This document shows positions 1,487 through 52,500 of a stretch of 64,000 nt of DNA, one piece after another. The notes under the pieces were generated by a model that saw only the letters and a program-made list of their open reading frames with translations, had not been told where the DNA came from and did not search any database. The stretch covers positions 20,058 to 84,057 of the forward strand of contig CALEVN010000026.1 in assembly GCA_937924685.1 (NCBI GenBank). Reading direction: 5' to 3'. This stretch comes from an uncultured Candidatus Altimarinota bacterium (lineage in GTDB: Bacteria > Patescibacteriota > Gracilibacteria > BD1-5 > JAGOOR01). A program made the translations under genes and the position numbers. Position 1 is the stretch's first letter, and every line of letters starts with the position of its first letter.

Positions 1487-1735
1487 CTAAGAGTAAAGAA
1501 GAATCCATTGACTACGAAAAAGTTTCAGCGTATACTTAAAACCATGTCAAATCAGCGTCCCAATACCGTCGTCATCATATTCCTGCTTATCATAGGTATC
1601 ATACGTATACTCTGAGAAAGTATTTACAAAGGTCTCTGGGCACTCCTCTTCGGACGCGTCATACCTCTCAAAAATGCTCGCACACTCCGGCTCTGGCACT
1701 GGTGAGTCCTCGATGGACCAAAAAAATTCTGGCAA
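1487..1735 (-). CDS. possible small acidic protein (very uncertain)
   Basis: Track ORF 1547..1735 ends at a TGA and reads on to TAG at 1487-1489. The start is non-ATG (TTG). It is rich in Asp/Glu and has no recognisable motif. Confidence 0.2.
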
Positions 1736-1806
1736 TCACCCAGCGTAACAAAAATCGGGAGAATACTCTCAACTACTATACAGGTCATATTTTATCCAAA
1801 AAAATA

Positions 1807-2982
1807 ATGCATTTTCGAGCACGTACATCTGGTTTTACACTGATTGAAGTCCTCGTGGGAGTAATGCTCTCGGGTCTTATTTTGACAGCTGCTTATAGCT
1901 CTTTTCAGGGTATTATGAAGAGTCAGATACGTCTCGGGTGAGTGATAGATATTCAGCGAAATCTTTTTTATCTCAATGAAAAGCTTGCATCTCTCATTCA
2001 CGGAGGAGGAACGCTCGATTATGAAGAGTATTTCAATCGTAGAATGCTCTGATATGGCCAAAGTTTTATACTAAAAGATATAAGTAATCCTGATAAATGA
2101 TCATGGTATACTTTTACAAATGTTTCAAAATATGGAAACGGTAGTTCTGGAGGACCAAAAATATATCTCTGTGGCAAAGATAGCTCAGTCGATCCAGATG
2201 CCTGTCTCGGAACAGGCGCTGTGTACGGCGCATCATCTACAGGGTCATCTTTTATTGATCTCGCCGCATCTCACACACTTCCCGGGTCACAACAAGCCTA
2301 CAGACAATACAGAGAGCTCTGATTTAACTATGCGTCGAGTCTCCCCGCACCTATCAGACTTCCTGCTATATTTCCAGCAGACGGCACACAGCCATGAAGC
2401 ATGCCCAAAATCAATACAAATGGTATTCCTGAGCTCTATCTCATAAAAAAACTCCCTGATGGCTCATACGAGCGCACGTACTTTCGTCATGTCTATGAAG
2501 AAGATCCAAACTACGATTATGCCAAAAATCCATGTACACCTCCAGCACTTGAATATTGCATAGGAAAAATACAAATGGCACGATTAGTCAGTTGTGACAA
2601 TGTCGACAAAACAGGAGCTCCAGATAAACCAGATGGCACTATTGATGCTTGGATACCAGAAGATGATTTTTCCAAATCAGGAACACCCGTATTGTGTAGC
2701 TCTATCGATACAGCGAGTAGTATAAATACAGCAAGTGATGATCTTCTCTGGGTCGATGTCAGCTCACCCGACATGAATATCACAAAGGTTTCTTTTCTCC
2801 CCTCTCCTCTCAAAATACCGAGCCTCATGTCTGGTACAGGTGAAGCAGAACCACGATCACCCATCATTCAGATGCATCTAGAAGTACAGCTCTCCGAAAG
2901 TGTACAGAGAAAATGACTACTAGGAGACGAATGAAATACACCAAGAATGCTCATAACTACATTTGATCTCGCAGACCTCTAA
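1807..2982 (+). CDS. type IV pilin-like protein with a prepilin-type N-terminal cleavage/methylation motif (391 aa)
   Basis: ATG at 1807. The N-terminus MHFRARTSG/FTLIEVLVGVMLSGLILTAAYSSF is the class III signal (G|FTLIE plus hydrophobic helix). Frame 1 is continuous to TAA 2980-2982 through seven TGAs. It joins track ORFs 1702..1941 and 2401..2916. Confidence 0.8.
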
Positions 2983-12419: not shown

Positions 12420-15400
12420 ATGAAAAAAGCACTTATTCTCATATTCCTCGCCATTGGAGCAACTCTTTGTTTTGACGCACTCGCTCAGACGTGGTCATTT
12501 AGCTGTAATGGCAACAACTGTCTCAAAGCAGGTGTGGATGCAGCAGGACAATACATAGGGAAAAGCTCTGGGGTTGTCACTGGGAAAGGAATTTCTCAAG
12601 CAGTCCAGGATGTTATCAAATACTTTCTAACATTTCTTTCTGTCATCGCCGTTATCTACATCATGTGGGCTGGTGCTCAGATGCTCCTCTTTCCCTCAAG
12701 TGAAGAATCAAGCGAAAAAACAAAGAAGATTATTATCTCCGTCTTTCTCGGTGTCATCATTATCTGGTTTGCGTGGTGGATAGTGAGTACACTCTTTTAC
12801 CTTCTCAATAACAACAAGGTTGTCTCAAACATAGTACCAAAAGCCTACGCTGAAACTCAAATCCGAAATATTGACTTCACTACCTATAGCAACAAAATAC
12901 GTGCCCTCAAGACACAAATTACAAACGGCTATAATCCAGAAATAACAAAACAACTCAATATACTGGTCGATGGCGCATTTGATCATCTTCCTGACCGTGC
13001 AGATATTTTTGTAAATAGACAGCTCTATGACAAGGTCAAAAAGGCAATTGCCGACTACGATCTCCATCGGGCCGAGATAGATCGTGGCATTCTCGAAAAT
13101 GCTATTGATGAATTTCTTGAACGTGCAAAAACATTTTCTATCCAAGGACAAATAGGTTCCAATCCACCAAAAGGAGATGCTCCTCTTTCAGTAACTCTCG
13201 AAGCGCGAAATATGATTGATGAGAGTGGTACGGTCATTCCGGAAACAAATTTCAGTTGGTGGCTCCGCACTCCTGATGGACCAAAAGTTCTCTGACATGG
13301 AAAAACCATCAACTATGAATTTAAGGATGAAGGAACATTCACAGTCTATCTTACCGTTAATTCTGCGAGCAAAAATAGTCGTGGTTTTACTGATGTAATA
13401 AGCTTTGAAGATCAAACCATCATAGAAGTAGGACAACCAAAACTCAAATGGGTCATATTTTTCAACGAACAACTCGCATCAGATTCAATGAAAATACCAA
13501 CCCGAGATGCCTTGCAAAAAGTACTCATCGATGCAACTCAAACAAAATTCTCTAATGGATATACGATAGCCAAGACTGAATGGGACTTTGGTAATGGTAA
13601 GTGAGCCTCTCATGAATGAGTTCCTATCATAGAAGCTCAGGATTACAAAGAAGGAGATTTTAATGTAAAATTGACCCTCACTCGAAATGATGGAGAAACA
13701 TTTTCAAAAACTATCACGCTCAAGATAGGTGATCCTATAGCATCTATTGGTATCAACAATACCAAACCAAATAAAGGAGAAACTGTCGTATTTGAAGCAA
13801 AAAAAGCAACACAAGAAGGAGTTCAATATTCATGGGAAATTCGAAAATTTGGTGTAGAACAGCCTATCTTTTCGATGACAGGCCCTCGCATGGAGTATGC
13901 ATTTAAGGAAATAGGCCGTTTTAGTATAGCTCTGCTTTCAAGTAAAAGTGGTGTAATAGATAAGGAAACAGTGGAGGTAAATATCGAATCTCGTCCGCCA
14001 GTTGTACGATTTCTCGCAGAACCTCTCGGTCCAGAAACGCCAAATACATATACATTCGATGGTACTTCTACCTACGATCCTGATTATCCAGACAATCAAA
14101 GTCTAAAATACGAGTGGTTTGTGAATGATCGACCCGTAGAACTTTTTGATACCAATTCAGCTAATAGTCGATGAAATTTCACTTTTACCGAAATAGGAAC
14201 ACATCAGGTTGAGCTTCATGTCGTTGATGAAGAAGGGAAGTCGTCTGTATTTAAGAAAGCTATCACTATCAAGAGTCTCCTCTCTATAGATCTGAATATC
14301 AAACCTCAAGTAGCAAAACGAGGAGGAAAGGTAATACTCAGTGCCAACGCTAATAATGGAAACATTTACGAATGGACAATTGGATCAAAAGATACAACTG
14401 TCACAGAAACTGGTAGACATATTGTCTCTTTTGAAAAATCAGGCACATATCCTGTCACTCTCAAGGTAACAGACAGATATGGAAATATCAATTCTATTCA
14501 GAGAAAAATATACATCGTTGATGGCGATGCTCCATTTGCGGTCATACAGCTCTCCACTAAAAGCCTCCTTTCAGAAACACAAAAATGAGCATGTAGTGGA
14601 AATGACGCACTCATAGTAGACAGAGTAACTCCGGTGTCGCTCGTGGGTGACAAAAGTGTCAATGTTGGAGGCGGGACAACTGATCTTACATATTTCTGGA
14701 AAGTCTGATTGAATTCGAGTTCTTCTCAGAAAAATTTCTCTCATACTTTTGATGAACTTGGATGTGAAAAAATCACTCTCACTGTCAACGATAAGAAAAC
14801 AGGAGCATCTCAAACATCAGAAGAATGGGTCAAAGTCGTCAACATACCACCAAAATTCTCCGATATTCAGGTCAAAGTAGAAAACATTGATATGGATCCT
14901 ATGCGTATAAGCCTCCGTATGGAAGGAGCAAAAGATCCAGACGGAAATATAGCTTCATATACATGGTATTACTATACCAGTACTGACGAGCAACCTCAGG
15001 GATTCCGTATTACGACAAAACCAGAAACGAGTTTTACCCTCCCAAAAATAAACGGTCGATATTACTTCTCTGTTGTTATGGAGGACGCAAATGGTCTCAA
15101 AGTAGACACGCGTGATATATCAGAAGAAAAATTCTCGACTCCAGATCTTCTCGTCAATCAAAATATCTCAATGCCTATCATTGACTTCAAAGCAAATGGA
15201 ACTGACATAAAATATGGCGAACCGGTCGAGTTTTCTGTGAATGTGAAAAATGCGCTTGGACAAGATATATCAAAAGCAGCAGAATATCGATGGGATATAG
15301 ATGGCGATGGTTTTTATGATACAAAGACGTCTGATCCTCATTTTACCTATAAATACACGATACCGGGCGAATATCATCCAAAAGTAAAAGTCACTCATCG

Positions 15401-17633
15401 TGGTCTCTCAACAACCAAATTCATCACACTTAATGTCGTCAATCGTCTCAACCCTCAGGCTGCCATACAGGTTATAGGCGATAAAATAGTAGCCTATAAT
15501 ATGTCGACAGGCATCGTACAAAGTGTTGCATGGTTTGCGGACGATAAAAAAGTCTCAGAGAATAAGGACTATCTCATCTATTCAGTAAGTGATGGAACTT
15601 TTCCTACATCTATAAAAATACAAATCTCTGATGGAAAAGATACACAAGAGGCGACATTTCCTATAGCCCGAAATGCCAAAAATAAAACACTTTTGAAAAA
15701 AATAGAAAAGCCACTTATCGTGCTCACAAATGACACCAATGGTAATGTAGAAGAAGTACCTGACAACGTCATATGGAAGGATCCTCTCAAGCCTCTCTTT
15801 TTCTATCTCGGTGAATCGACAGGTGATATTCAATTTTATGCAATAGATAATGACATAGACATCGACACTGATCTGTCTGGCGGAAAAGATGATGACGCTG
15901 ATAATAAAGGGACAGCTTCATACAGAATGGGGCGCCCATACTCAGTCCCTATGGGAACAAAGCGTACAACGATTATGCGTCTTCGACTTCTCAAAAGTGA
16001 CGGAACAGAGATTGATTCGAGACAGATACGTGTCACTCGTGACTTTATAGCACCGATTGTAGATACAGAAAATCCAACTACAGTGATAAAATCACCGCAG
16101 GTATTCAATCTCTCAGCAGAAGATAAAGCACGTCTCGATAAACTTCAGGGTTTAGTTCAAAATGTACCTGATGAAGAACGAAAAGACCTCACACGCTACC
16201 TCGACCAACTTGGAGATATCTGGTATGACCGTGCTGATAGAGCTGAAACTCTTCTCCAGTTTTCACAAGCAGTAAATATCAGCAAATCTATGTCACCTGA
16301 GCTCAAGACTCGTATTCTTGAACAAGTAAACCTCATCTATACCCAGGGACAACAGGATGCACAAGAAAAGGAAATCGCCAAGAAAATGATCGCAGATTTT
16401 CTCGCAAAAAGCTCATATAAGAAAGAAATATTTGGCGATGGTACTGATAGTAATAGTGGGTTACTTGGCCAAATCATAGATAATCCCGAATACTATGAGC
16501 AAAATAAATCTATCGTCCAAAAAATATATGATGATTATATAAAATTCGATAAACAAATTTCTGATGAAGCAAAAGCCGTCATAAAAGATAAGCTCACGAT
16601 GCTTATAGGAAACCCTCCTGTTCAGACTACTACTCCGCCACCAGTCGTCACAGAAGAAAAAGTATCTCTATGGACAAAAATACAAACGAAGGTAACGGCC
16701 ATAGTAGGGGATAAAGGTCCTATTATTCTCTGGATTGGTATAGCAGTTATAGGTCTTCTCGGTCTCATGGTACTCGTCAAACTTTTCAGCGGATCAAGTC
16801 GTAGTACTTCTCATGAGAATGACCATCATGACGATCACAACGGAGGTCTCTCGACAACACCAGAAAATAATCATGGTCCAGACTGGCTCCATGCAGATGA
16901 TCAACATAATGATCACCACGACAATCATAGTACAGAATGAGATAGCCATGCTACAACTCCAGACTGGCTCAAGGAGACAGAATCTCCATTTGGCGAGGAA
17001 GACGTCCTTTCAAAGGAAGTCGCTGCCACAACAATTCACAATGATACAACAATCAAAACACCTGATTGGATGCACGACGAAACACACGTAACTCCGTCTG
17101 CACCAGAAAAAAAAGCAGAAACAGCTTCTGCTGATGTACCAGCTTGGTTACAGTCTGCACCAGAAACAGACACCAAAGCCCCCGTAGAAACAGTATCAAT
17201 TCCAGAAATACCAGCAGACACAACACCTCCTGCTGTCAGTCATGATGATGTCCCTGATTGGCTCAAATGAGCTGAACACACAGAGACAATAGATGAAACA
17301 AAAGAAACAGATGATTCATCAGCCCTCTTTGAAACAGAAAAAACATGAACAGATGATACCACTCCAGTTTCATCAACACCATCTCCATCGACTTCAGAAT
17401 CATCTGATCTTCCTGATTGGCTTGCATGAACTCATAACACAGAAAATGCAACTCCAGAAACTTGAAATATCACAGAACCAAAAGACAATAATGAGACATC
17501 TCAAGTACCTGCACCAAAACAGTCAAAAAAATCATCAAAAAAAGATGAACAATTGACGCCAGGAAACCATCTCATTGGGGCAGCAGAAGAGCTCATAGCG
17601 CCTGAATCAGATACTGATAACACTTCTACTTAA
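12420..17633 (+). CDS. giant (1737 aa) surface protein: signal peptide, two-TM pilin-like module, PKD-like repeat array, TM anchor, His/Asp-rich and PDWL-repeat tail
   Basis: I checked frame 0 codon by codon between track ORFs 12420..13295, 13671..14174, 14709..16940 and 17070..17270. Only TGA interrupts it, and it ends at TAA 17631-17633. PKD-like motifs include EWDFGNGK, YEWFVNDRP and YRWDIDGDGFYD. The TM anchor is IILWIGIAVIGLLGLMVLVKLF. Confidence 0.8.
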
Positions 17634-17638
17634 ATTTC

Positions 17639-19975
17639 ATGATTGCTATACGTCCATCAACCCCGTCTCCAAAACCAGAAAAGGAAACAAAAAAATCCAT
17701 CTGGTCAAGTATTGCAGCATATACAGCAAATGATCAGGATTACACTCCGGCACTCAAAATCAGTAAATCACCAAGCGCACCGAAAAAACGACATTTTCTG
17801 AGAAACATTCGAGCTGCATTAACCATTCTTATTATTGGTTATTTGCTCTTGTGTGCATACGTGTTACTTAATCCTGAGAATGCACTCTTCTTCAATAATA
17901 TTCTCGGTGTCCAATATCTCACAGTTCGTACTGTTTTGGAGTATACCATTTATGTGTTTTACAGTGCATTTGGTATCATTATTGGTTTTGGATTTCTCTT
18001 TTTTGGATTCAAAGCCTTCTCTATTCGTACCAAAAGCCGCGCAAAACGAATCAATATATGGATAATAACAGTATTTTTCTGTTTGATATTTTTCGCAAAT
18101 ATTGCTCTTTTTGCAGTGACATATGAATGGTTTCGAAGAATTGATTTCAACAATCTCGATGGACGAGTACTTGTCTATAATAACTCTCTTTTGAAGTATT
18201 TGAAGCCAACCGACGTGTCGACAGCTCTCATACCAAATGATGTCAAAATAGGACCACTTCAGGTCAGATATGATATCAGTGCATATATCAAAAAACGTGC
18301 ATTTCTCGAAGGTCTCGTTCTCACCGAACCATATACATTTGAGATTGATTATGATGGCGATCGTCGACCAGATAGAGGAACAGGGAAGAGTAACTCTATC
18401 GATCATCCAATCACTGATGTAGATTTTGCACCTATTATATCACCTGAATTCACCTACGATCAGGCAAAAGTTTACAAACCAACTGCGAGCATTTCAGGTA
18501 CAAATGTCGCCGGTAAACCTATCAAGTTCGATCTCGATATACCTGCTATCTCTCTTGATAAAATCGTAAAAATTGGACGTAATCTCATGCCAGATGGTGG
18601 CATCCAATACACCTTTGATGCTGTCGATCTCAGCGATCTCGGTCAAGTTCGTTGGACTGTACTTGGAGACTCAAATATGACCAAGGATGGTTATCAATTT
18701 TCTCCCGATAAAATATTTGTAACACCAACTATTGTTTGTCTCCAGATCTTTCGAGGAAAAGCTCCTCTCAGCAATACCTGTGATTGGCAATTCGTCACAG
18801 AAGAAAGTACAAAAAGTAATATACAAAATACCGATATCGCCGTCAAAGTAGACCCTATTAATCCTCTCAAATACCAGTTTTCGGTGAGCCCAACAACTAT
18901 CCAGTGAGATATAAAAACAATCAATTGGTATATTGATGGGCAAATTTATGTTGGTAAATTTGATTCATGATTTGAGCGCATATTTGATTATACATTTCAC
19001 CGACCAGGAACATATAAAATAGAGGCTGAAATAATAGATACCCTTGGAAATACCGTCCGCGTACCAACTACAAATCCGATTTATACTGCAGATATGGTTG
19101 AACTCAAAGACGGTTTTTCTCTGAGTGTCACCGATGAGTCTGGTACAGATCTTATCAAAGACACCTATGATAAGGCAACCCAATCGTATCTATTGCAAGA
19201 TTTCCCAGTGCCAGGAATTCTCAAACTCGATGGAACGAGAGTGAGGGCCAATTCAGCACGATTACGACTCACAAAAGTCGAGTGGGATACAAATAATGAC
19301 GGCGTCTATGAATCCGAATGACTCTCTCTAGAACACCCTATCGATGTTCCTGGTCGGTACGATATTCGCGCTCGATTTACCTTTACTGACCTCTCTGTTG
19401 ATGGGAAAGATATACCTATCTATCATATAGATCGTATAGCCGTTGTTGGTGTACAAAAACCTCTCGATGTACGAGTAAAAATCACTCCTGATGATGGGTA
19501 CGCACCAACTTCAGTCAAATTTGATGCTTCTATCTCAAAAATACAGAAATGAAATATTCGTAAATTTCTCTATGATTTTGGCGATGGACATAAGTATGAA
19601 TGAGAAGGTGTCGTCACAACCTATAAATATAACAAACCTGGCGAATACAAGATCACTGTCACAGCCGTCTCAAACACTGGCCTCCGTGCATCAAAAACCT
19701 ATACACTTATTCTCAAAAAACCACAAGAAAATGTACATATACAGCCCAGCATTGCCTCTAATCTGGCAGAAGCAGGACTTCCTGTCACATTTGACGCACA
19801 GATAAAATGAGATAACGCAACAATTTTTTGGGACTTCGGGGATGGCTCTGGTATAGTAACAGGGCAGAGTCCTGTACACGAGTTTGCCGATCCAGGAACA
19901 TACACAGTCAAGGTACGCGTCGAATATGCAACAGGAATAGAGGAAAGTGATAGCATCTCCTACATCGTTCATTAA
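17639..19975 (+). CDS. polytopic membrane protein with a PKD-domain ectodomain (778 aa)
   Basis: ATG at 17639, 5 nt after the previous stop. Frame 2 joins track ORFs 17639..18907 and 19094..19321 and ends at TAA 19973-19975. It has four N-terminal TM helices. The C-terminal PKD signatures are LYDFGDGHKYEGEGVVTTYKYNKPGEYKITVTAVSNTG and IFWDFGDGSGIVTGQSPVHEFADPGTYTVKVRVEY. Confidence 0.8.
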
Positions 19976-19980
19976 ATACT

Positions 19981-21048
19981 ATGCATATTTCTCTTTTTAT
20001 TCAGTTTTTTACGACATACTGGTTGCCATTGTTGATTATCACTATTGGTGGACTTATCTATACAAGCATAGTTCTCTGGGCTGCAAAGATAAAAAAATGA
20101 CAAGCTCTCACACTTTTTTTGACGGGTATCATCGTTATTACCTGTATCTTTCTCCCGTTTAACTGGTCGATTCAAAATTCAGGAAGTGGCAAGGAAGTTT
20201 CTCTCTTCTTTTTCCAGGTAAATATTGAGGGGAGTAATTTCATCTCCATTTTGAAGAACGCACTCTCCCACAATGGACTCGTACAAACTATTCAACTCTC
20301 ATTTCGAGAGAGGGATATAGCGAGCGATATTATCGTTCTCTTTTTAGCATTTCTCGAAGAATTAGCAAAGCTCACTCTCTTGATCCTCTGTATTAGAAAA
20401 AGTCTCAGAATGCCTGTCATCATCGTTTATCTCATATTAGTTTATTCTCTCTTTCATAAGCTTGATGGTGTGAATTCAACGCTTACCATGGGAGCTATGG
20501 GTATAGGAAGTTTTGTTGGACTCATTATTCTCTGGACTCTTTTGAGTACACCTATACGCACTGAAAGTGTCGCTGATTATATTTACAGCATCGCTCTTGT
20601 AGCGCTCGGTTTTGCCTTTGCAGAAAATATCAAATACATGATAGACATATCAAATCATGGTGGAAGTCTCGACAGCATTACAAACAATGCCATCCTCCGA
20701 TCCATTTTTGGATACCTCTCACATACATTCTTTAGTATGGTATGTGTGTCTTTGTATGCTCGAGGGAGATTTGCCTTCTTACGACTCATCGACGATTCTG
20801 GGAACCTTTCTCTCGGTCAAAAAGCCCTTGGGTGGAAAAACTACACCAGTATCAAGAGTATTCAGTGATTTTGGACTGGTGTTATCTGTGCCAGCATCAT
20901 CCATGGCGTCTACAATATTTTCATTTCTTCAAATGTTCTTATTCCCTCAATCATCCTGATTGTCGGGTTTCTCTTTCTCGAGCTCTTCGTTCTGCACGAT
21001 CTCAGAAACAATACCAAGTACGGGCATATAGAGAATTATATGCAGTAA
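19981..21048 (+). CDS. PrsW-family intramembrane metalloprotease-like protein
   Basis: ATG at 19981, 5 nt after the previous stop. Frame 1 joins to track ORF 20119..20868 and ends at TAA 21046-21048. It is multi-TM and carries the PrsW-type motifs FLEELAKL (EExxK), ALGFAFAENIKY (FAxxEN), LSHTFFS and IIHGVYN. Confidence 0.65.
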
Positions 21049-21109: not shown

Positions 21110-22096
21110 ATGTCTACACCAGATGAGGGCTTACCTATTAAGCCATGACGTGAAAATGATGTCCGTAATTTAGGTCTTCAAATTCATGCCATGGGGGTAA
21201 GAAAAAGATTGGAAACTATCATGAAATGAGATGATATCGAGAAAATTGTAGAAACAGCAACACAAATCTGTGAAAGATGAGTAGGCATCTCAGCAATAAT
21301 GATTGCAGAGCAAAGAACTCAAATGATCCAAATGGATGCTGTACTAAGTGGTATGAATAACCACGAAAAGACTCAGTTTGTAATGTGGAAACTCGCCATA
21401 CACCCTGAAGAAACAGCTCTCTGATATCCTTGGAGACCAGAACATGAAGATAAAATGACAGAAGCGTATTATACAATGATATGATATATGGTGGAAAATG
21501 GTCTCTTTGACGTATCAAGTCTTAAAGTAGATTGCTACGAAAAGCTCTGAAACATCTACGATTTGGTTGATAAAATAAATAGAGAAATAGATTCTCCTGA
21601 AATAGATATACTGATAGAAACTCTCAAGAAAGAATTGGTCGATTTTTGAGTAGATAAATGAGCAATATCATTCTTACTTCCGGAAAATAAATTTGAAGCT
21701 TTTAGGGCATGTTTAGCACTCTGGACTATAACAAAAATAATAGAGGGCACTTGAAATAAGAAATTTTCAAAACTTGAAAACAAAACCAAGACTATTGATG
21801 GGCATGGTTTTTCTATATGATGCAATCAGGTACAGCCATTGGCGTTTATGATTTCGCTGGAATTCCTTCTCCCTGACTGAGAAGGAGCAAGCACTAGAAA
21901 TGATTTTGAGCCAAATCAGATGAAGGATTTCGTAAATGCATGTTTAGGGAAATTATTAACCCCCGATGGGAAAAATTTCATTGAAATATGTTTTTGAAAT
22001 GCTGTGGAGAGCCTTATCATTCGAACTAATTCAGAACCTCTCGATACAGACGCAGAAAAAATAAAAAAATTGATGAGGGGAAATCTCGGCGAATAA
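21110..22096 (+). CDS. hypothetical soluble protein (328 aa), invisible under the standard code
   Basis: ATG at 21110 and TAA at 22094-22096. Frame 2 is interrupted only by 12 TGA codons, so the + strand shows no track ORF of 60 aa or more here. The translated sequence is non-repetitive and protein-like. I recognise no family. Confidence 0.6.
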
Positions 22097-24783: not shown

Positions 24784-24866
24784 GTGAAAAACTAACTCCA
24801 AACAATGCTAATACCGTTGTAAAGAGCTATTCCTTGCAAAAGCCCAGCTGAATCTATCATATACAT

Positions 24867-26723
24867 ATGAAAAGATTATTTTTGGCGATTATATCAATCG
24901 CGCTTTTAGACAATGTGTATGCTCTCGACACATCGTGTCTACTCCTCAGGAGTCAGTCAATAAACGTCGGTGCAGGGGAAGTGATACAGGTAGAAAGTGA
25001 GTCTGAAATTTATCCACTTCAAGGAGGCGTCGTGGCGCCAATCAAATGGTTCTCCCAAAACAAAACAAAAGAATACCTCGATTATTCTGTCGTACAGGCA
25101 AGTGGAATCAAAGGTACAGAATACTCACTTATCTCCGATAATAACCCAACAACATTCATACAGTTCTCCAAGAATCCAAAGTCTATTACTCTCAAGCTCA
25201 ATACAGCAGTGAGTGCAGGAGAATTTGGTTTTTCTATGGATGCTGATGTATTCGATCTTAGTGAAATAGAAATCTCAAATGATGGTAAGAGTTTTGAGTC
25301 AATACTTCTCTCCGATATTGAGTTTTTCGATTTTCAATATATACGAATATCCTTCGTTGACACACTCAAAAATTCTAAAACAACCCTCTTCGCTCCAACA
25401 AAAATCAGGGATATATTGTTCTATAAAAAAGAATCAAATAACTATCTCATTAAAAGCCTCTCAACAACACCTATCACCATCTATTCTCAGGTAAATTGTG
25501 AAAACAAATACATAAACGAAGCTCTCTCATCTGCTTATCAGGCTGGAGAAAAAATAAAAATGTCTACCAGCATAAACACGAGAAATATAGAATTATCTCT
25601 CTCAAAAAATGAACAATACAACAAAGATAAAGATGGTGATTGAATTTTAAATAATGTTGATAATTGTCCTCTCACTCCAAACAAAGATCAAAAAGATACC
25701 GACAAGGATCTCTTGGGTGACGTCTGTGACATAGATCCAAAAAATCGTAATCCGCTCTTGGGCGATAGTGATTATGATGGTATTGATGACGAGAGAGATA
25801 ATTGTCCATTTACGAGAAACCCCGACCAATCAGATACAAATTCTGACGGACGATGAGATGCATGTAGTGACGATGATGGGGATGGATTACTCGGTTCTGT
25901 CGACAATTGTCCGAGCGTGCCAAATAGAGACCAAAAAGATGTGAACGTAAATAACGTAGGGGATGTGTGTGAGTCTGATCGTGATAAAGATGGTCTCTTT
26001 GATATCATGGACAACTGCCCCGGAATAGCAAATCCAGACCAAGAAGATTCAGACTCAGATGGTATTGGTGATATGTGTGATAATTGTAATCGATATAATC
26101 CAGATCAAAAAGACGAAAACAATGACAAAAAAGGAGATGTCTGTAGTGACTGGGAAACATATGAAAAATCTCATGACGATGATAAAGATGGTGTCATAAA
26201 CTGGGAAGATAATTGTCCAAAGGTATCAAATCCGAAAATCAAAATGATAAATCCAAAAACGGGTAGAGAGGAGATAATGCAATCAGATAAAGATTATGAC
26301 GGCATTGGCGATGCTTGTGATAATTGTGTCGATATTCAAAACAACGATCAGCAGGATACAAATCAGAACAATCAATGAGATATATGTGAAGATATGGATG
26401 GCGATGGCCGACAGTCATACAAGGATAATTGTCCGCTCGACAATAATCCTGATCAGGCAGATAAAAATAATGATGGCATTGGTGATCTCTGTGATGATAC
26501 AGACCAAGATGGTATTCGTGCATCTGTCGATAATTGTCCGTATGTTTATAACCCTGAGCAGCTGGATTCAGATAATGATAAACGAGGAGATAAGTGTGAT
26601 GACAAGGATGGTCGTTTTCTAGAATCAAATAAAGGTGTCTTTATAGCCATATTCGTCATTATCGGTATTGCGATGCTCTGAGGCATAACTGTTCTTGGTA
26701 AAAAACTATTTTCTTCTCGCTAA
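24867..26723 (+). CDS. secreted thrombospondin type-3 repeat (Ca-binding) protein with a C-terminal TM anchor
   Basis: Joins track ORFs 24867..25643, 25917..26378 and 26394..26681 (frame 0), ending at TAA 26721-26723. It has a signal peptide and an N-terminal beta-rich domain. That is followed by about ten repeats of DNCPxxxNxDQxDxDxDGxGDxCD, and then the hydrophobic tail VFIAIFVIIGIAML. Confidence 0.8.
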
Positions 26724-32108: not shown

Positions 32109-32193
32109 TGGTGCCCAAGAGAGGACTCGAACCTCCACGCCTTGCGGCGCTACCACCTCAAGGTAGTGCGTCTGCCAATTTCGCCACCTGGGC
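32109..32193 (-). tRNA. tRNA-Leu (anticodon GAG), CCA encoded
   Basis: The minus strand reads GCCCAGG-TG-GCGAAATTGGCAGACGC-A-CTACC-TTGAGGT-GGTAG-CGCCGCAAGGCGT-GGAGG-TTCGAGT-CCTCT-CTTGGGC-A-CCA. It folds with a 7-bp acceptor stem, the long variable arm typical of Leu, a TTCGAGT T-loop and a GAG anticodon. Confidence 0.9.
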
Positions 32194-39127: not shown

Positions 39128-41959
39128 ATGTCCAATACTATTGATCTTTTCTGAGTTGCCACGCACAATCTGCGCAATGTAGATATATCTTTTACCAAAA
39201 ATACACTCACTGTCCTCACAGGAGTGAGTTGATCGGGTAAATCCTCTCTAGCCTTCACAACCCTCTGCAACGAAGGGCAGCGACGATATCTCGAATCTCT
39301 CTCCACCTATGCTCGTATGTTTATCGGTGGCATGAGTGAAGAAGCAAAAGTAAAAGAAATCCGTGGTCTCACACCGACTATTAGCATAGAACAAAAAACA
39401 GTCGCCCACAATCCTCGCTCGACGGTGGGCACGATTACGGAAATATATGATTTTTACCGTCTCTTTTTTCTCAGTCTCGGTACACGTATTTGTCCTCATG
39501 ATGCCACACCGATGATGAAAAAGACGCATAAGGATGTGATAGAATACCTTTCAAAGACCAAAAAAGGAGTCCGAGTAGGAATATGTGCTCAGATACGAAA
39601 AACATTTGAAACAGCTCTTGAGCTGCGAGATTTTGTTGGTCAAAAGTGATTTGTTCGATATTTGTCGAACAACCATGTCTATAACCTCTCCGATGCTCTC
39701 CCAGAAAAGATAACTGACCCATGGATTATTGTCGATCGTGTCGAAATTGATAGCGAAGATCCGACCCAAAATGATCGACTTTCACAGTCGATATCAACTG
39801 CTTTTGAGCACGGTGAAGAAGTTGTTGGTATTTATAATTTTGAACGAGAAACAATGGAAGTGTTTTCTCGAGCTTTTCGCTGCCCCCTCTGTGGTTATGT
39901 ACCAGAAGAATTGACCCTTTCTCATTTTTCTTTCAATTCACCGACAGGTGCCTGTCCAGATTGTCATGGTCTTGGCTCCCTTCTGAACTTCACAGAAGAG
40001 TCCACTATTGATCCAAATAAGACATTGGATGAAGGGTGTGTCATGCCATGGACACCTGATTCGTATTACTATTTTGTCCTTCAGGGCGCATGCAAACATT
40101 ATAAAATCCCAACAAAAATTCCCTATAAGGATTTGACCGATAAACACAAAAAAATTATTCTTCACGGTTCAGAAGAGAGGTTGTCACTTTCGACACCTCA
40201 GATGAATAAGCCGTGGAATGCAAAATACCCAGGTATTATACCCTACCTCAATCGTGTCTACCATGATCCAGATACAACAGAGGCGCTCCATGAAAAGATA
40301 GATCCATTTGTCGTATCTTCGACATGTTCGACATGTCATGGCTATAGAGTAGGCGAAGCTGCAAGAAGTGTCGTCATAGACGGCAAACACATAGGTCATA
40401 TCGCCGAGATGTCTGTGGAGAAAACTATTGATTTTTTTGAACACCTGAAGCTTTCGGGAGAGGATTCAAAGATTGCGGGCAATGTCCTCAAAAATATTCG
40501 TGACCGTCTCAAATTCTTAAAATGAGTCTGACTTGGCTATATGACACTTGCTCGTCGATCAAATACTTTGTCTGGCTGAGAATCCCAGCGTATTCGTCTC
40601 GCGACACAAGTAGGCACGAGACTCGAATGAATCACCTACGTCCTCGACGAACCATCTATCGGTCTCCATCCTCGAGACAGTCGACTCTTGATAGACAATC
40701 TCCGAGAGCTCGTCAATCTGGGTAATACGGTGATTGTTGTCGAACATGACGAAGATATCATGCGAACGGCTGATGAAATAGTCGATATCTGACCTGGCGC
40801 AGGTGTCCATGGTGGAAATATTGTCTTCCAAGGTACCTACGAAAAGCTCCTCAAGTCTAGCACAGAAACTGCCAAGTTTTTACGAGGAGAAAATACTATA
40901 CAGATACCAGCACTCAGCAAAAAACCAACCAAGTATATAAAATTAAAGGGTGCGACAGAAAATAATCTCCAGAATGTCAGTGTCGACATCCCACTCGAGG
41001 CACTGACAGTTGTCACGGGTGTGAGCGGTTCAGGAAAATCTTCACTCATTAATAGGACATTTTCTCCTGTCATGCGAAATCTCCTCCATGGTACGAGAGA
41101 TACACATGGTGCGCTCAAGGGTATCGAGGGGTATGAAGACCTCGACAAGGTCGTCATCATCGATCAGATGCCCATAGGGAAGACGCCACGATCAAATCCG
41201 GCGACATATACAGGTGTCTTTACCGATATACGAGAAGTATTCGCACAGACGCTCGAAGCTCGAGCTCGGGGATATGGGCCAGGGCACTTCAGTTTCAATA
41301 CAAAACAGGGACGTTGTGATGCTTGTGAGGGGGATGGAGTTCGCCGAATACAGATGCATTTTCTTCCAGATGTCCATGTCACCTGTGAATCATGTCAGGG
41401 TACTCGCTACAACCATCTCGTTCGGGAGGTACACTTCCATGACAAGTCTATATCGGATATCCTCGCCATGACTGTCGAAGATGCTGTGATTTTCTTTGAT
41501 AAATTCCCAAAAATTAAACATAAACTTCAGACAATTCTCGAAGTAGGTCTCGGATATATAACGCTTGGTCAATCAGCCCTGACATTGTCTGGAGGTGAAT
41601 CCCAGCGTGTAAAATTGGCGACAGAACTTGCTCGAAAATCAACAGGGAAGACCCTCTACATCATGGATGAACCTACCACCGGTCTCCACTTTTCTGACAT
41701 ACAGAAACTTATGTCTATCGTGTCTACTTTGGTCGAAAAAAAGAATACGGTCGTCATCATAGAACATCATCTCGATGTCATCGCCAATGCTCACTATATT
41801 ATCGACATGGGGCCAGAAGGTGGCGAACGAGGAGGACGACTCCTCTATCAGGGGCCTCGTGACGGCGTCCTCACTGCAGAGGAATCATTTACGGGTCAAT
41901 GTCTCCAGGAATACCTCGATCATAAAAAGAAACAAATACCGTCTAAAAAGAAAAAATAA
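39128..41959 (+). CDS. uvrA: excinuclease ABC subunit A
   Basis: Frame 2 joins track ORFs 39317..39649, 39662..40525 and 41021..41959 (944 codons). Motifs include [12 protein letters not shown], the Zn modules, [12 protein letters not shown], the second Walker [11 protein letters not shown] and [12 protein letters not shown]. Confidence 0.95.
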
Positions 41960-42946: not shown

Positions 42947-45160
42947 ATGAAACATAAAGGAATGCCTTTATTTCCTCATTTTCATATTATGTTTCCTGCT
43001 TTTATAGAGAGATTCAGAAAAGTGACAGCTGTAGTCGCTATTACGACTCTTGTTTTTTCTTTCATTAGTCCAGCATTTGCTGCTTCCACTTTTGATTCTG
43101 TTTCTGTTGGTTCTCAGACAGGATCGATAAATGCAGGTACAGCTGGAAGTGTGACCTATGTTGTTACGGTAAACAGATCTGGCAGCGGAGCACTCAGTGT
43201 CTCTTTGTCGGCCAGTGGTCTACCATCTGGAGTCACTGCTAGTTTTTCACCATCAACGGTTTCATTTAGCGGAAATTCACCTACATCTAACACCTCGACT
43301 TTGACCCTTACCTCGACTAATTTAACTCCTTCTGGCACAACTACTTTCACAGTTCAGGGTAGTGGTGGAAGTACACACACAGCTAATGGTACTCTTTTGG
43401 TTGGTAGTTCGGACACAACTCCACCAACTATCTCAAATATTACTTCTACAACAGTTGACGGTAAATATAAGGCTGGCGTCTCTATTCCTCTGAATGTGAC
43501 ATTTTCTGAGTCTGTTACTTCGACAGGGAATGTCACTCTCACGACTGATACTGGTCGCACCTGTACTTTCACAGTTACCTCGAGCACGACAGGAAGCTGT
43601 AACTATATAATCCAGGCTGGTGATACATCTGCCGATCTCACGGTATCATCTGTCTCTGGTACGATAAAAGATGCTGCCAACAATGCGATGACAAACTTCA
43701 CTCCTACCACGAATCTCGCTGCAAATAAAAATATCATCATCGACACTACAGCTCCAACTATTACGCTTCTTGGATCAACACCAGTTACTGTCGAAGTTGG
43801 CTCTGTCTATAGTGATGCAGGAGCAACTGCGACAGATAGTGTCGATGGAAGCCGAACAGCAAATATCGTTACAGTAAATTCTGTTAATGCCAATGTCGTA
43901 GGAAACTATACTGTCACCTACAATGTCTCTGATGTAGCCGGAAACGCTGCTACTCAAGTCACTCGTACGGTCAATGTCGTTGATACGACAAAGCCAGTCA
44001 TTACTCTTCTTGGCTCCCCAACTGTCTCAGTCAATTTCAATGCTTCTTACTCTGATGCAGGGGCAACTGCTTCTGACAATGTCGATGGTGACATCACTTC
44101 GTCTATCATTGTCGTCAATCCAGTTGATACCCTCACTATCGGTAATTATACAATTACCTATGATGTGACAGATACTCACGGAAATGCTGCAACTCAGATC
44201 ACTCGTAGTGTCAGCGTTGTCGACACAGTAGCGCCTATGGTCAGCAGTCTCAGTGCCGTTCCTACCACGACAACTTCGACAGTGTCTTTCTCAACAAATG
44301 AAGATGCAACATCGGTTATCAATTACGGTGAAACCAGCACATACGGTTCAACAGTAACTATGGCGTCGACAGCAACTACGAATCATAGTGTTACTCTCAC
44401 AGGACTCAGTTCTTGTGGTCAGAGATATCACTACTCTATCACAGCGACAGATACACATGGGAATGTCACGACAACACCAGATGACCTCTTTATCATGCAC
44501 TGTGGACCGACTATCACAACTCCAGGAAGTGGATTTTCACCACCTCTTCCAGAGCCTGAATCAACAACCACAGGAGGTAGTACAACCACTTCAGGAACGA
44601 CTATAAGTGGTTCGACAACTGGTACGAGTGGCACAACTTCGACAACGAGTGGAAACACAAGTTCTGGGACCACAAGTGGGACAACATCAGGAACAACTCC
44701 AACCGGTGAGACCACAAGTGGGACAGCTGGTACAGGTGGAACAACAACATCAGGAACAACTCCGACAACACCAGTAAACCCAAATCAACCAACACCAGAA
44801 TCAAATCCGACAACTCCTACCAATACAGGAACAGGAACTACAGGTGGTACGACTGGTACTGGCGGAACGACAAACGGTGGTGGAACAACCGGAACAACAC
44901 AACAGGGTGGCAATACGACAACAGGCGGTACTGCCACATTTAACCCTCGAGAAACAACACTCGATGCGGGTGGTGGAGTCACTCCTGAACCAGAAAAAAC
45001 AATAGAACCAGTAGCTCCTCCTACGCCAGTCGATGAAGGCGGAGGTGTTGTTCCTGAAGAGAATAATTCTCATACTCTCACATGGACACTTCTTGCACTT
45101 CTCGGCTTACTCAATGGATGGTACTTCTTTGTCTACAAAGGTAAACCAGAGATCAGATAA
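42947..45160 (+). CDS. secreted surface protein with tandem Ig-like (DUF5011-type) domains, a Thr/Gly-rich stalk and a C-terminal TM anchor
   Basis: Uninterrupted 737-aa ORF with no TGA. Two near-repeats have the form TxPxITLLGSxxVxVxxxxxYSDAGATAxDxVDG...GNYTxTYxVxDxxGNAATQxTRxVxVVD. A low-complexity (T/S/G)n region at about 44520-44960 follows, then LTWTLLALLGLLNGWYFFVY. Confidence 0.8.
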   Translation: MKHKGMPLFPHFHIMFPAFIERFRKVTAVVAITTLVFSFISPAFAASTFDSVSVGSQTGSINAGTAGSVTYVVTVNRSGSGALSVSLSASGLPSGVTASFSPSTVSFSGNSPTSNTSTLTLTSTNLTPSGTTTFTVQGSGGSTHTANGTLLVGSSDTTPPTISNITSTTVDGKYKAGVSIPLNVTFSESVTSTGNVTLTTDTGRTCTFTVTSSTTGSCNYIIQAGDTSADLTVSSVSGTIKDAANNAMTNFTPTTNLAANKNIIIDTTAPTITLLGSTPVTVEVGSVYSDAGATATDSVDGSRTANIVTVNSVNANVVGNYTVTYNVSDVAGNAATQVTRTVNVVDTTKPVITLLGSPTVSVNFNASYSDAGATASDNVDGDITSSIIVVNPVDTLTIGNYTITYDVTDTHGNAATQITRSVSVVDTVAPMVSSLSAVPTTTTSTVSFSTNEDATSVINYGETSTYGSTVTMASTATTNHSVTLTGLSSCGQRYHYSITATDTHGNVTTTPDDLFIMHCGPTITTPGSGFSPPLPEPESTTTGGSTTTSGTTISGSTTGTSGTTSTTSGNTSSGTTSGTTSGTTPTGETTSGTAGTGGTTTSGTTPTTPVNPNQPTPESNPTTPTNTGTGTTGGTTGTGGTTNGGGTTGTTQQGGNTTTGGTATFNPRETTLDAGGGVTPEPEKTIEPVAPPTPVDEGGGVVPEENNSHTLTWTLLALLGLLNGWYFFVYKGKPEIR

Positions 45161-49518: not shown

Positions 49519-52500
49519 ATGCGTCAGATCCTTCGACAAATCGTCGCAGTTCTCGCGTTTGCTGGAATTACTATGAGCATCGCTCCTAGTACTTTCGCTG
49601 CAACATACAATGACTTGTCTGCTGCAAACAAACTCGCTACTGCAGGAATCGTAGTTGATCATTCAGCAGCTCCTGCTGAATATCGACTCGCTGATAATGT
49701 TCTCCGTCAGGAGGCTATCGGTGTTGCTGGTAAAGTGTCAGGTGTTATACCAAACACTCCAGTATCTTCATACTCTTGTATGAACAAGTTTAGTGATATT
49801 TCAGAAGCTTGGGTTTGCCGAGCTGCTGAACTCGGAGTTCAGGCTGGTTTTGTTAATGGTAACAACGCTAAGTTCCGACCTCGAGACAACGTATCACGAT
49901 ACGAGTCTCTCCTCTGGGCTATCAAATCTAACGGCATCTCTATCTCTGATACTTCTGTATCAGGTGTAGTAGCTCGTGCTGTAGAAGTTGGTATCATCGC
50001 TAACGCATCTTCATTCAACGCTACTACTTCTGCTACTCGTGGCGAAGTGTTCCGTTACAATGCTTACGCAATGGACTACAAAGCTGCTAACTCAAATGGA
50101 AATGGTAACAATGATATTCTCTGTCTTCTCGATCCTTCATTCTGTGGTAACAATGGAGGTCAAGTAGTTAACGGAAACGTCACTGTTGGTACTTCTGCTG
50201 CAAATCCTGGCGTTATGACTATCGCTACTGGTACAGCTCACAACACTGTCTTGGCATTCAACGTGTCAAACGGTTCTTCTGTTGCTGCTAACGTAACTGG
50301 TCTTCGCTTGACTAAAACTGGTTTCTTCGCTACTACAAATGTCTCAGGCATTGAAGTATTCGACGCTAACGGTGTTCGTCATGGAAATGTCGTTACTACT
50401 CTCGGTTCAAATGGTGTCGCTATGATGACATTCCCTACTGAACCTATTATGGTAGCTGCAGGTCAGACTGTTACTATCTTCGTCAAGGCTAACCTCTCTG
50501 GTACATCTTCTGGTACTATTGGCTTCAACGTCAATTCTGCTTCTGATGTTACTATCTCAGGTGGTACTGTCGGTGGTACATTCCCAATCGTCGGTAACCT
50601 CCACAACATCGTAAACGGTGCTGGTACTATCGGTACTGTCACTCTCGATGAAATGGCTGTTAACGCTTCTGGTGCTACATACAACGCAGATCCAGCGGCT
50701 TCTCAGGAAATCGCTAAATTCCAAGTTCGTGAGACATCAAGCAATGAAGACATCGTCCTCACTGGTCTCAAGCTCTGGAATAATGGTAATGCTTCTGCTA
50801 CTGACTACAAGGATGTTCAACTCGTTGATCAGACTGGTGCAGTCGTTGCTACAGCTCAACCTATGGGTCAAGTTGTTAGTTTTGTTCTTTCTACTCCTTA
50901 CTCAATCACTAAGGGTCAGACTAAGAACTTCACTGTTCGTGCTACTATCGTCAATGGTGCTTCTCGTACTATCCAGTTCACAGTCTACAACGACTACGAC
51001 CTCTACGTAAGAGGTGTGAGCACAGGAGCTACTCTCCTCGCTACTGCTGGTACTACTGACACATCATTCCCAATCGGTGACACTACTTCTACTTACAACA
51101 AAGTAACTATTGGTTCTGGTTCACTCATCTTCAATCGTGCTGTTGATTCATCTTCTACAGCTGTTACTCCTGGTGCTACAGATGTAGTTCTCGCGAAATA
51201 CACTGCTAAACCAGTTGGTGAAGATATGGAACTCCGAACAGTTAACTTCGGTATTGACCAAGATACAGGTGCTGTTGCTCTTACAGGTACAGTATTTGTT
51301 AAGGTTAATGGTGCTGTTGTTTACTCTGCTGCTGCAAATACTACTAACTTCCCAGTTGCTGGTACTGCTTCATCTCGTACACTCTCATCTTACCCTATCC
51401 TCACTGCAGGTGTAGAAAACACTATTGAAGTAATTGCTTCAATCAGCTCTTCTGCTACTGCTGCTGATGCATACCAGGTGAAGGCATTTGACATCACATC
51501 TACAAAACGACTCATCTCAAATGATATCGTTGACCCAACTGTTTCTACACAAGACGGTTTCAACCGAACTGTTAAGGCAGCTGCTGTCACAGTTACGACT
51601 CTCGCAACTCCTGTTGCTGGTTCTATCGTTCCTGGTACAAATGGTGTTAAACTCGCAAGCTTTGAATTCAATGCTAGCGCTTCTGGTGAAGATGTTCGTG
51701 TCACAGCTGTTACTGTTACTGATACGAAAGGAGGCTCTGCTGTCTATGCAGACATCTCTAACCTCGTAATGAAGGATGCATCTGGTGCTCAACTCACTAC
51801 TTCTTCTTCTACAGCGACAAATGCTAACACTGTTACATTTACATTCACAAATCCTATCATCGTAGGTCGTTCTGCTACTACTGTTATTAACCTCTTTGGT
51901 GATGTCAGAAGTAGTGCGACTGCTGGTGGCACTTCTGCATATGCTCATACATATAACATTAATGCTTCTGGTGATGTAACTGCTACTGGTAAAGACACTG
52001 GTAACACTATCGCGACTCCTACTGTTTCTGGTTCAGGCCAGGCTCAGAGAATCGTCTCTGGTGGTAACCTCAATGTCGCCACTGATTCAGGTGCTGGAAA
52101 AACTCCTTCACTTGCTCAAATCGTTCCAATTAACTCTGTAGACGGAGTCTATCTCGCTGCTCGCTTCTCATCTCAATTTGAAGCTCAGAAAGTTACATCT
52201 CTTACTCTCAAAGCTACTGGTACAGCACTCGTTCAGAACAACCTCAAGAACATCCGTCTCTACGCACAATCTGGTACTGGTCCACTCCTTGGATCTACTG
52301 CTGCATTTGCTACGACAAATCAGTTCTCTAGCTGTTCTTCAAACGTATGTTCTTACACATGGACTGCTACAGACAACCTCCTCCCTGCCGTTATTGATCC
52401 TTCTTCTCCTATGACTATCTTCGTCAAGGCTGATATCCAAGGTGAAAATACAGCTAAGCTCGGAAATGACTTCTACTTCTCTATCACAAATGATGGTACA

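Follow-up and report, generated by a model that had tools for sequence, protein, structure and literature searches.

What is a small VirB2-like pilin module doing at the head of a very large surface protein, and does it remain joined to that protein? The question is raised by a gene at 12420-17633 (+) of a 64,000-nucleotide stretch of contig CALEVN010000026.1, from an uncultured Candidatus Altimarinota bacterium; the whole stretch is referred to here as the window. The reading that we favour, with moderate confidence, is that the gene belongs to a conserved envelope apparatus for contact with a host or another surface. In this apparatus a VirB2-like subunit would be made as one chain with a giant Ig/PKD protein that has a docking tail, would probably be cut off from it, and would act with the product of the following gene, termed P778.

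A single gene with TGA read as glycine

Under genetic code 25 the giant gene is one frame of 1737 sense codons that runs from an ATG at 12420 to its lone TAA at 17631-17633 and contains 11 in-frame TGA (codons 292, 395, 400, 585, 723, 763, 1507, 1617, 1643, 1670 and 1682). The same frame under code 11 yields four open reading frames (ORFs) of at least 60 residues, at 12420-13295, 13671-14174, 14709-16940 and 17070-17270. A previous interpretation of this DNA, made without database searches (the sequence-only reading), had merged these four ORFs into one, and the codon-level reading bears this out.

12420..17633 (+), complete coding sequence, 1737 residues, 11 TGA read as Gly; all orthologs start with MKK at the corresponding ATG and remain colinear up to the stop

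The whole window is recoded. Code-25 ORFs tile about 95% of it, and selected genes end only in TAA or TAG. When UvrA (39128-41959) is aligned with PDB entry 2r6f, six of the seven aligned TGA positions correspond to Gly and none to Trp, and the matching positions include the Walker A (GxSGSGKS) and ABC signature (LSGGE) motifs. In alignment columns where any ortholog of the giant gene has a TGA, the other sequences have Gly in 137 of 238 cases, against a background of 6%. On this sequence evidence the host code is 25, TGA being read as Gly, and the single-ORF reading is hence legitimate. The translation of TGA as Trp (code 4) is ruled out by the UvrA alignment. A tRNA-Gly(UCA), the decoder of UGA, was not found in the window, the sole tRNA of which is a tRNA-Leu(GAG) at 32109-32193 (-).

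Five orthologous loci from independent assemblies are colinear with the window protein over its whole length at 49-66% identity, and their own 7-25 TGAs fall at mostly different positions. A search with the first 292 residues of the giant protein returned only short proteins of 162-387 residues, because public gene calling used code 11, which fragmented each of the four orthologous loci whose gene calls were inspected. When code 25 is applied from the corresponding MKK start, every orthologous locus that is complete reads as a single ORF of 1751-1862 residues. The short public entries are what would be expected if the locus held several separate genes, a pseudogene or a chimera, with TGAs that are true stops or a frame that is open by chance. 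This explanation is extremely improbable, and is refuted by the match of TGA to conserved Gly in UvrA and to GGN codons in the orthologs, and by the colinearity of the 1737-codon frame in five assemblies with differing TGA positions. The same orthologs exclude the assembly chimera against which the sequence-only reading had advised a check.

Database entries of the giant family in code-25 lineages (among P0001-P0030 and loci L001-L006) are code-11 fragments. Two full-length homologs, P0058 and P0155, show W at positions where Gly would be expected (e.g. 'WDFWNGN'), the result that a translation of TGA as Trp would give. A conserved surface protein of about 1750 residues in code-25 lineages is therefore effectively invisible in public protein databases, and surveys of adhesins or pilins in these lineages are biased, since only code-11 fragments or Trp-for-Gly translations are available to them. 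The metagenome-assembled genomes (MAGs) nearest to the window (among L007, L008, L027 and L044-L046) are labelled 'uncultured Candidatus Peribacteria bacterium'; the orthologous gene has 7 and 30 in-frame TGA in the closest two, L007 and L008. The taxonomic labels and the assumed genetic code of the Peribacteria-labelled assemblies look inconsistent.

The N-terminal pilin module

The N-terminus of the protein comprises three elements.

12420..12485 (+), signal peptide, residues 1-22, with A-L-A before Q23 (hydropathy, AlphaFold2 helix 2-22; kept in orthologs)
12486..12587 (+), extracytoplasmic segment, residues 23-56, with the Cys pair C29/C34 (AlphaFold2 helix 34-50)
12588..12794 (+), T4SS_pilin module, residues 57-125, with transmembrane helix TM1 at ~66-88, the loop PSSEESSEKTKK and TM2 at ~103-127 (PF18895, AlphaFold2)

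Signal peptide cleavage before Q23 is predicted from the -3/-1 rule. C29 is invariant and C34 nearly invariant in the ortholog alignment, and the two probably form a disulfide. An AlphaFold2 model of residues 1-291, built with 22 homologs, has a mean predicted local distance difference test score (pLDDT) of 60.7 and shows a helix-loop-helix at 58-90 and 97-130, followed by a disordered spacer at 132-151. A signal peptide, a Cys-containing segment and two close transmembrane (TM) helices separated by an acidic/Lys loop, as recognized in the sequence-only reading, are thus all present by hydropathy and in the model. The loop is predicted to be cytoplasmic because of the positive-inside rule (KTKK precedes TM2); the tail of the protein would likewise be cytoplasmic, and the stretch from TM2 to TM3 would lie outside.

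PF18895 (T4SS_pilin) matches the full protein with 29.5 bits, residues 1-166 with 34.4 bits and residues 23-135 with 36.1 bits, against a gathering cutoff of 26.6, and it matches all 24 diverse family modules tested. The resemblance to TrbC/VirB2-like pilins that had been proposed is borne out to this extent by hidden Markov model searches; it does not extend to PF04956 (TrbC/VirB2) itself, which scores 16.4, 20.9 and 22.7 bits for the window protein against a cutoff of 27.9. PF04956 is found at E <=0.01 in 19 of the 24 diverse modules, with a best value of 5.5e-10. Membership of the TrbC/VirB2 superfamily is sound on these profiles, the relationship being one at superfamily level. NCBIfam NF045849 (Mbov_0395 pilin-like conjugal transfer protein) gives 15.9 and 21.8 bits, under its 40-bit threshold. 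The window has a single pilin module, that of the giant gene.

Ectodomain, third transmembrane helix and tail

The product is best read as a tripartite envelope protein: the signal peptide with the pilin hairpin, an ectodomain of about 1300 residues, and a third TM helix that leads into the tail. The remainder of the protein, beyond the spacer that follows TM2, is organized as follows.

12852..13127 (+), four-helix domain, residues 145-236, beginning ETQIRNIDFTTYSNK (AlphaFold2 helices 153-167, 173-188, 196-216 and 219-235, pLDDT 70-90)
13134..15689 (+), Ig/PKD array, residues ~239-1090 (Pfam and a self-trained profile)
15702..16055 (+), acidic beta domain, residues ~1095-1212, with a D-x-D-x-D...DADNKG motif (from sequence)
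16056..16715 (+), membrane-proximal region, residues ~1213-1432 (from sequence only)
16716..16784 (+), third TM helix, residues 1433-1455, predicted to run from outside to inside (hydropathy maximum 2.93)
16785..17630 (+), predicted cytoplasmic tail, residues 1456-1737 (282 residues), acidic, rich in T, D, S, E, P and H, poorly conserved
16878-16889, 16959-16970, 17061-17072, 17139-17150, 17253-17264 and 17412-17423 (+), six tail motifs (pattern)

The four-helix domain has many invariant residues in the homolog alignment; neither a family match in Pfam nor a fold match with Foldseek was obtained for it. Beyond it, the self-trained profile delineates seven PKD-like domains (239-325, 350-432, 437-518, 525-613, 619-695, 728-802 and 917-1002). 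In Pfam, PKD_4 (PF18911) and PKD (PF00801) each match six stretches above cutoff, with 114.4 and 113.2 bits, respectively (E ~1e-33). An Ig-like domain at ~830-893 corresponds to the Pfam K319L-like PKD family, and one more domain probably occupies ~1005-1090. We place the end of the array near residue 1090, which gives about 8-9 Ig/PKD domains overall. The array therefore spans about 850 residues rather than the ~1400 attributed to it in the sequence-only reading.

The D-x-D-x-D...DADNKG motif of the acidic beta domain is a possible Ca2+ site. This domain aligns weakly with two copies in the gene downstream of the relative P0098 (E 7e-5 and 2e-4 in a 2-sequence database). The membrane-proximal region is probably helical, as judged by eye from its residues rather than by a prediction tool, and has no match in Pfam or NCBIfam. 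The further TM helix and the tail, estimated earlier at about 270 residues, were both found, and the late TM helix stands at the equivalent position in all full-length relatives.

Although the tail is poorly conserved, it carries six copies of a motif, [IVLT]-P-[DA]-W-[LM], at residues 1487, 1514, 1548, 1574, 1612 and 1665. Across 20 family proteins 84 instances were counted, three to eight per protein, with the consensus [DE][DE]x[IVL]PDWLK. The sequence around the copies is not conserved, and the motif often forms the very C-terminus. Such PDWL repeats bear the signature of short linear motifs in what reads as a disordered region. Within the 795 kb of related DNA scanned, multi-copy PDWL is confined to the giant-gene cassette. 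A literature search for the motif returned only unrelated 'DWL' motifs of plants and oomycetes.

Fused and split forms of the family

An exhaustive search with residues 1-137 retrieved 1022 cluster representatives at E <=0.001. These relatives of the pilin module fall into three groups: stand-alone proteins of ~120-170 residues, which are the most numerous, proteins in which 3-8 modules follow one another in tandem, and a small number of long proteins headed by one module. The tandem-module proteins (P0033, P0036, P0038, P0042, P0048, P0064 and others), 300-820 residues in length, are fused pilin arrays.

The species representatives of GTDB were scanned with a single peptide pattern, so that the counts are lower bounds. 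The scan gave 42 loci, nearly all labelled Gracilibacteria, 'Peribacteria' or Patescibacteria, and the fused gene is present in at least 17 species-level genomes. Fifteen of these 17 genes could be read to the stop; their products have 1727-1893 residues and combine a TM helix at ~1430-1480 with a tail of the xDWL type.

In five genomes (L017, L024, L027, L031 and L032) the family is split. A pilin gene of ~150 codons ends in TAA or TAG, and the giant gene follows immediately, either in the same frame past one stop or overlapping in another frame, with a classical signal peptide of its own. The split giants of L024 and L027, the loci that are complete at the 3' end, have the same late TM helix and PDWL tail. 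A quick neighbor-joining tree that included four split forms placed them in one clade nested among the fused forms, which suggests that the split clade stems from a single fission event.

Standard-code relatives (P0109, P0136, P0161 and P0098) combine one or more pilin modules with a coiled-coil and a PKD array and are without the late TM helix or the tail. Immediately upstream of their pilin-headed giant come one or two pilin genes that stand alone; in the code-25 locus L009 an extra stand-alone pilin gene likewise lies directly upstream of the fused gene. The product of the next gene in the standard-code relatives has a signal peptide, followed by acidic beta domains, a TM helix and a tail with PDWM repeats, and it corresponds to residues ~1113-1737 of the window protein in weak but consistent alignments. 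A separate observation concerns a standard-code MAG labelled Gammaproteobacteria (L040:7989-16103 (+)), in which the same pilin-like head (signal peptide and two TM helices) is joined to an unrelated, non-PKD ectodomain in a 2705-residue protein; the module recurs at the head of other giants.

The junction after TM2

The segment between TM2 and the four-helix domain bears on whether the module leaves the giant protein.

12801..12851 (+), variable spacer after TM2, ending in P-K-A-Y-A (residues 140-144), with a candidate signal-peptidase I site A144|E145

The residues across this junction are ...SNIVPKAYAETQIR..., of which P140, A142, A144, E145 and T146 are invariant in 22 close homologs. In all fused forms examined except L021, which has T-R-A, the pattern P-x-[AVST]-x-A closes an otherwise variable spacer of 12-25 residues, and it is retained in fused forms that are only ~30% identical. 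Directly behind it begins the four-helix domain, whose conserved first residues are ETQ... or (A)YTES.... At the homologous position the signal peptides of the split giants end in TFA|YTES, SFA|YTES, GFS|YTES or TYA|APYTES. Read most simply, the mature giant protein would have the same first residue whether its gene is fused or split; TM2 of the fused precursor would then be an internal signal sequence, and signal peptidase I would free the VirB2-like subunit. Cleavage at A144|E145 itself we consider to have roughly even odds; only through it could the fused gene give a stand-alone pilin.

The sequence-only reading had envisaged a membrane-embedded stalk or adhesin built on a pilin-like anchor. 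In such a protein the VirB2-like hairpin would be a mere N-terminal anchor of an uncleaved giant with three TM helices, the ectodomain, held in the membrane at each end, would form an arch or stalk, and no free pilin subunit would arise. This is a serious rival, if on the whole an unlikely one. TM2 is long and strongly hydrophobic, as expected of a stable anchor, and a long spacer separates it from the A-x-A motif. In P0109, P0136, P0161, P0098 and L040 the module is the only TM segment and no obvious A-x-A follows directly; there it probably serves as an anchor. However, the split clade has a separate module gene and a giant with a classical cleavable signal peptide, so that covalent linkage is dispensable, and P-x-A-x-A is conserved inside a spacer that otherwise varies. 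These two features suggest that the module may be a cleaved-off partner subunit in place of the anchor.

P778 and the proposed complex

The giant gene is followed at short distance by two further genes on the same strand.

17639..19975 (+), partner gene P778, 778 residues, beginning 6 bp after the giant gene (PKD_4/PKD, E ~1e-30)
19981..21048 (+), PrsW-family intramembrane metalloprotease-like protein, 355 residues, beginning 6 bp after P778 (PF13367, 40 bits against a cutoff of 23.5)

P778 has an N-terminal cytoplasmic segment, TM helices at 56-80, 102-129 and 135-165, and a large ectodomain that ends in PKD domains. A homolog of ~780 residues follows the giant gene in every code-25 locus that reaches far enough, whether fused or split. 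The PrsW-like gene is syntenic only in the window's own clade (L003, L004, L005, L007, L008 and L009), and LemA and TPM genes likewise flank the cassette only in that clade. That the PrsW-like protease processes the single-pass giant protein or its tail is speculation.

The giant gene is the core of a cassette that is conserved across the Gracilibacteria class. Because its parts are found either within one gene or in neighbouring genes, pilin module, giant PKD protein and P778 most likely work as one complex. Taken together, the fusions, the fissions and the synteny are Rosetta-stone-type evidence for a joint function of P778 with three parts of the fused protein, namely its pilin module, its PKD ectodomain and its TM-plus-PDWL tail. 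In the favoured contact apparatus the precursor would be inserted by the Sec pathway, with TM2 acting as an internal signal or start-transfer sequence. A cut by signal peptidase I at the P-x-A-x-A site (A144|E145) would release, in a one-to-one ratio, the mature VirB2-like membrane subunit and the giant PKD protein, the latter as a type-I membrane protein. Both products and P778 would stay associated as an adhesion structure for contact with a host or surface, and the multivalent PDWL tail would dock a cytoplasmic partner. An adhesive role would fit the proposal that giant PKD-bearing membrane proteins are host-attachment factors in the related predator Vampirococcus (PMC8080830).

Type IV secretion and points against the contact apparatus

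Several results weigh against this apparatus as a whole. Its VirB2-like part is exposed first to the failure of PF04956 to reach its cutoff, as given above. Neither sequence nor fold leads from the module to a solved pilin: Foldseek with the low-confidence AlphaFold2 model (pLDDT 60.7) found nothing in the PDB at E <=0.001, the best hits (0.067) being generic helical bundles, and the module profile matched among PDB sequences only TM segments of G-protein-coupled receptors, spuriously, at E >=0.013. The comparison with VirB2/TrbC models that the sequence-only reading had advised was uninformative with this model. At the junction, the candidate site lies 15-25 residues past a long (~25-residue) hydrophobic TM2, farther than typical signal-peptidase sites, for which reason the giant may never be cut; nor need an invariant A-x-A-E-T signify more than the point at which the conserved four-helix domain begins. 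The alignments that relate the last third of the protein to separate genes of the standard-code relatives are weak. PKD domains are generic, so that they hint at binding and do not prove it.

The genomic context is a further point of this kind. Pfam at E <=1e-4 detected no VirB4, VirD4, VirB6 or other family of the type IV secretion system (T4SS) in window ORFs of at least 80 residues, in a scan that left out ClpB, UvrA, RadA and two short ORFs (identified otherwise or unscanned). No T4SS genes appear in the gene tables of the orthologous and distant loci, and inspection by eye revealed no VirB4, VirD4 or VirB6 beside the stand-alone pilin genes of the same assemblies. A link to type IV secretion is therefore unproven, and a role in a pilus or T4SS is without contextual support.

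The same context bears on the possibility that the giant is an adhesin subunit of a VirB2-type pilus made by a T4SS encoded elsewhere. Through its module the giant protein would be incorporated and would display its PKD array in the manner of VirB5 or of tip adhesins, while the stand-alone pilins form a fibre or a membrane stack. The module does belong to the T4SS_pilin/TrbC-VirB2 superfamily, and stand-alone pilin genes directly upstream in L009, L049, L051 and L052 give a layout of major plus specialized subunits. VirB4 is reported from 2417 of 3035 Patescibacteria assemblies, with T4SS components dispersed in Gracilibacteria (PMC12102498), and VirB2-like pilin arrays are essential in a cultivated patescibacterium in which a pilus is suspected (PMC12857230). 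Against this, no VirB4, VirD4 or VirB6 lies near the giant gene or any relative examined, and a pilus has been shown for no PF18895 protein. Moreover, the late TM helix and 280-residue tail of the code-25 proteins would block extraction from the membrane unless the module is cleaved, and the giant would then no longer be linked to the pilin. We regard this possibility as improbable. The T4SS-pilus reading overlaps with the others, so that the degrees of confidence given to them are not exclusive.

Membership of the Pam pilus family was rejected: NF058578 PamR scores 12 bits over 40 residues of an Ig domain against a cutoff of 300, a match that looks like generic Ig similarity.

Comparison with known systems

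The window module shares with TrbC of RP4 and VirB2 of the Ti plasmid a signal peptide, two hydrophobic helices and a short charged loop. Both of these pilins are trimmed at the C-terminus after the second helix, TrbC by the LepB-like (signal-peptidase-like) TraF, which provides a precedent for proteolysis just after TM2. In contrast, the C-terminal 'extension' of the window protein is ~1600 residues long and has its own TM helix and tail. Neither a cyclisation signal nor a TraF-like gene was identified for it.

Bacterial polyproteins that are split by an internal signal peptide exist, for example the Bradyrhizobium FbcH cytochrome b-c1 precursor. As proposed for the window protein, a TM helix inside that precursor serves as the signal for the downstream part, and cleavage gives two membrane proteins in equal amounts. 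For the window protein, in contrast, cleavage is deduced from the conserved motif and from the relatives with split genes, and the spacer is of unusual length.

The closest relatives by family are the PF18895 pilins and pilin arrays of Southlakia and TM7x, which share the signal peptide, the two-TM hairpin and the candidate phyla radiation (CPR) lineage, and which occur as several paralogs per genome, some of them adjacent (PMC12102498, PMC12857230). Those pilins stand alone at ~100-170 residues, often beside virB4, whereas the window module heads a 1737-residue protein, has no T4SS gene near it and is followed by a possible peptidase site. The T4SS survey of Patescibacteria, which describes VirB2-like pilin arrays, found no PrgB-like adhesins for patescibacterial T4SSs, and a term search of it found PKD unmentioned (PMC12102498). 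A review describes the pilin arrays as essential in Southlakia and pilus formation as unproven (PMC12857230). Following the description of Patescibacteria in the reviews, the present host is probably monoderm.

Giant PKD-bearing membrane proteins have been proposed to act in host recognition and attachment in Vampirococcus lugosii (PMC8080830). They resemble the window protein in being very large, membrane-associated and PKD-containing and in coming from the same broad lineage. The passages on them describe no PDWL tail, conserved P778 partner or fused and split forms, and a term search of the paper found no mention of VirB proteins or type IV secretion (PMC8080830). Pam pili, in turn, are built in Saccharimonadia and Microgenomatia from Ig-fold subunits by donor-strand exchange with chaperones (bioRxiv 10.64898/2026.03.03.709456). 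They are likewise a CPR-specific Ig-fold surface structure for host contact, with an architecture unrelated to that of the window protein.

The ingredients are of known kinds: the PF18895 pilin module, PKD arrays and giant CPR surface proteins. Literature searches found no paper that describes a fusion of the pilin module with a giant PKD protein, and in the literature searched no description was found of the lineage-wide fusion, of its fission variants, of P778 as a conserved partner, of the PDWL tail or of the candidate internal peptidase site. The statement of the sequence-only reading that the architecture had not been seen described agrees with these searches. It needs qualifying in that the architecture is conserved in at least 17 species and that one automated IMG name hints at the combination, P0098 being called 'PKD repeat protein/type IV secretory pathway VirB2 component (pilin)'.

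The role of VirB2-like pilins in monoderm, host-dependent Patescibacteria is at issue here. The one species open to genetic work cannot do without them, although no pilus has been observed and no adhesin has been found for these T4SSs (PMC12857230, PMC12102498). The giant family offers a natural link, through fusion and fission, between the VirB2-like module and an Ig/PKD surface protein with a cytoplasmic tail of signalling type. It predicts that the precursor is cleaved at a defined site, that three proteins form a complex and that the tail motif has binding partners. By a tentative extension, which we think unlikely to hold in full, VirB2-like 'pilins' of the Gracilibacteria class would be the membrane subunit of a host-contact organelle and perhaps not, or not only, a T4SS fibre. 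A polyprotein would be cut into this subunit and a type-I giant PKD adhesin, both would be assembled with P778, and the PDWL tail, possibly released or remodelled by the PrsW-like protease, would relay contact or recruit machinery.

Other features of the window

The window is otherwise ordinary chromosome, with UvrA, UvrB, ClpB, RadA, DprA, an AcrB/HlyD/MarR efflux set and surface proteins (SLH, TSP3 and Ig-like). Several of its genes are noted here.

1702-2982 (+), 426-residue ORF with a prokaryotic N-terminal methylation motif, type IV pilin-like (PF07963, 25.1 bits)
21110-22096 (+), uncertain gene call, 328 residues, 12 TGA, no Pfam match; overlapped by ORFs 21216-21518 and 21556-22020 on the minus strand
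24834-26723 (+), 629 residues, at least seven thrombospondin type-3 repeats and a C-terminal TM helix
42947-45160 (+), 737-residue Bact_surface_Ig-like gene
49519-53103 (+), 1194-residue surface-protein-like ORF with an SLH-like N-terminus; no Pfam match at 1e-4

The ORF at 1702-2982 suggests that the window opens with genes for a type IV pilus or for pseudopilins. The protein with thrombospondin type-3 repeats is a surface protein of Ca-binding type near the cassette. The gene at 49519-53103 has no TGA or GGG, and GGT accounts for 81 of its 109 Gly codons; that at 42947-45160 has no TGA among 82 Gly codons. Both look like highly expressed genes, perhaps of an S-layer, that avoid the reassigned codon.

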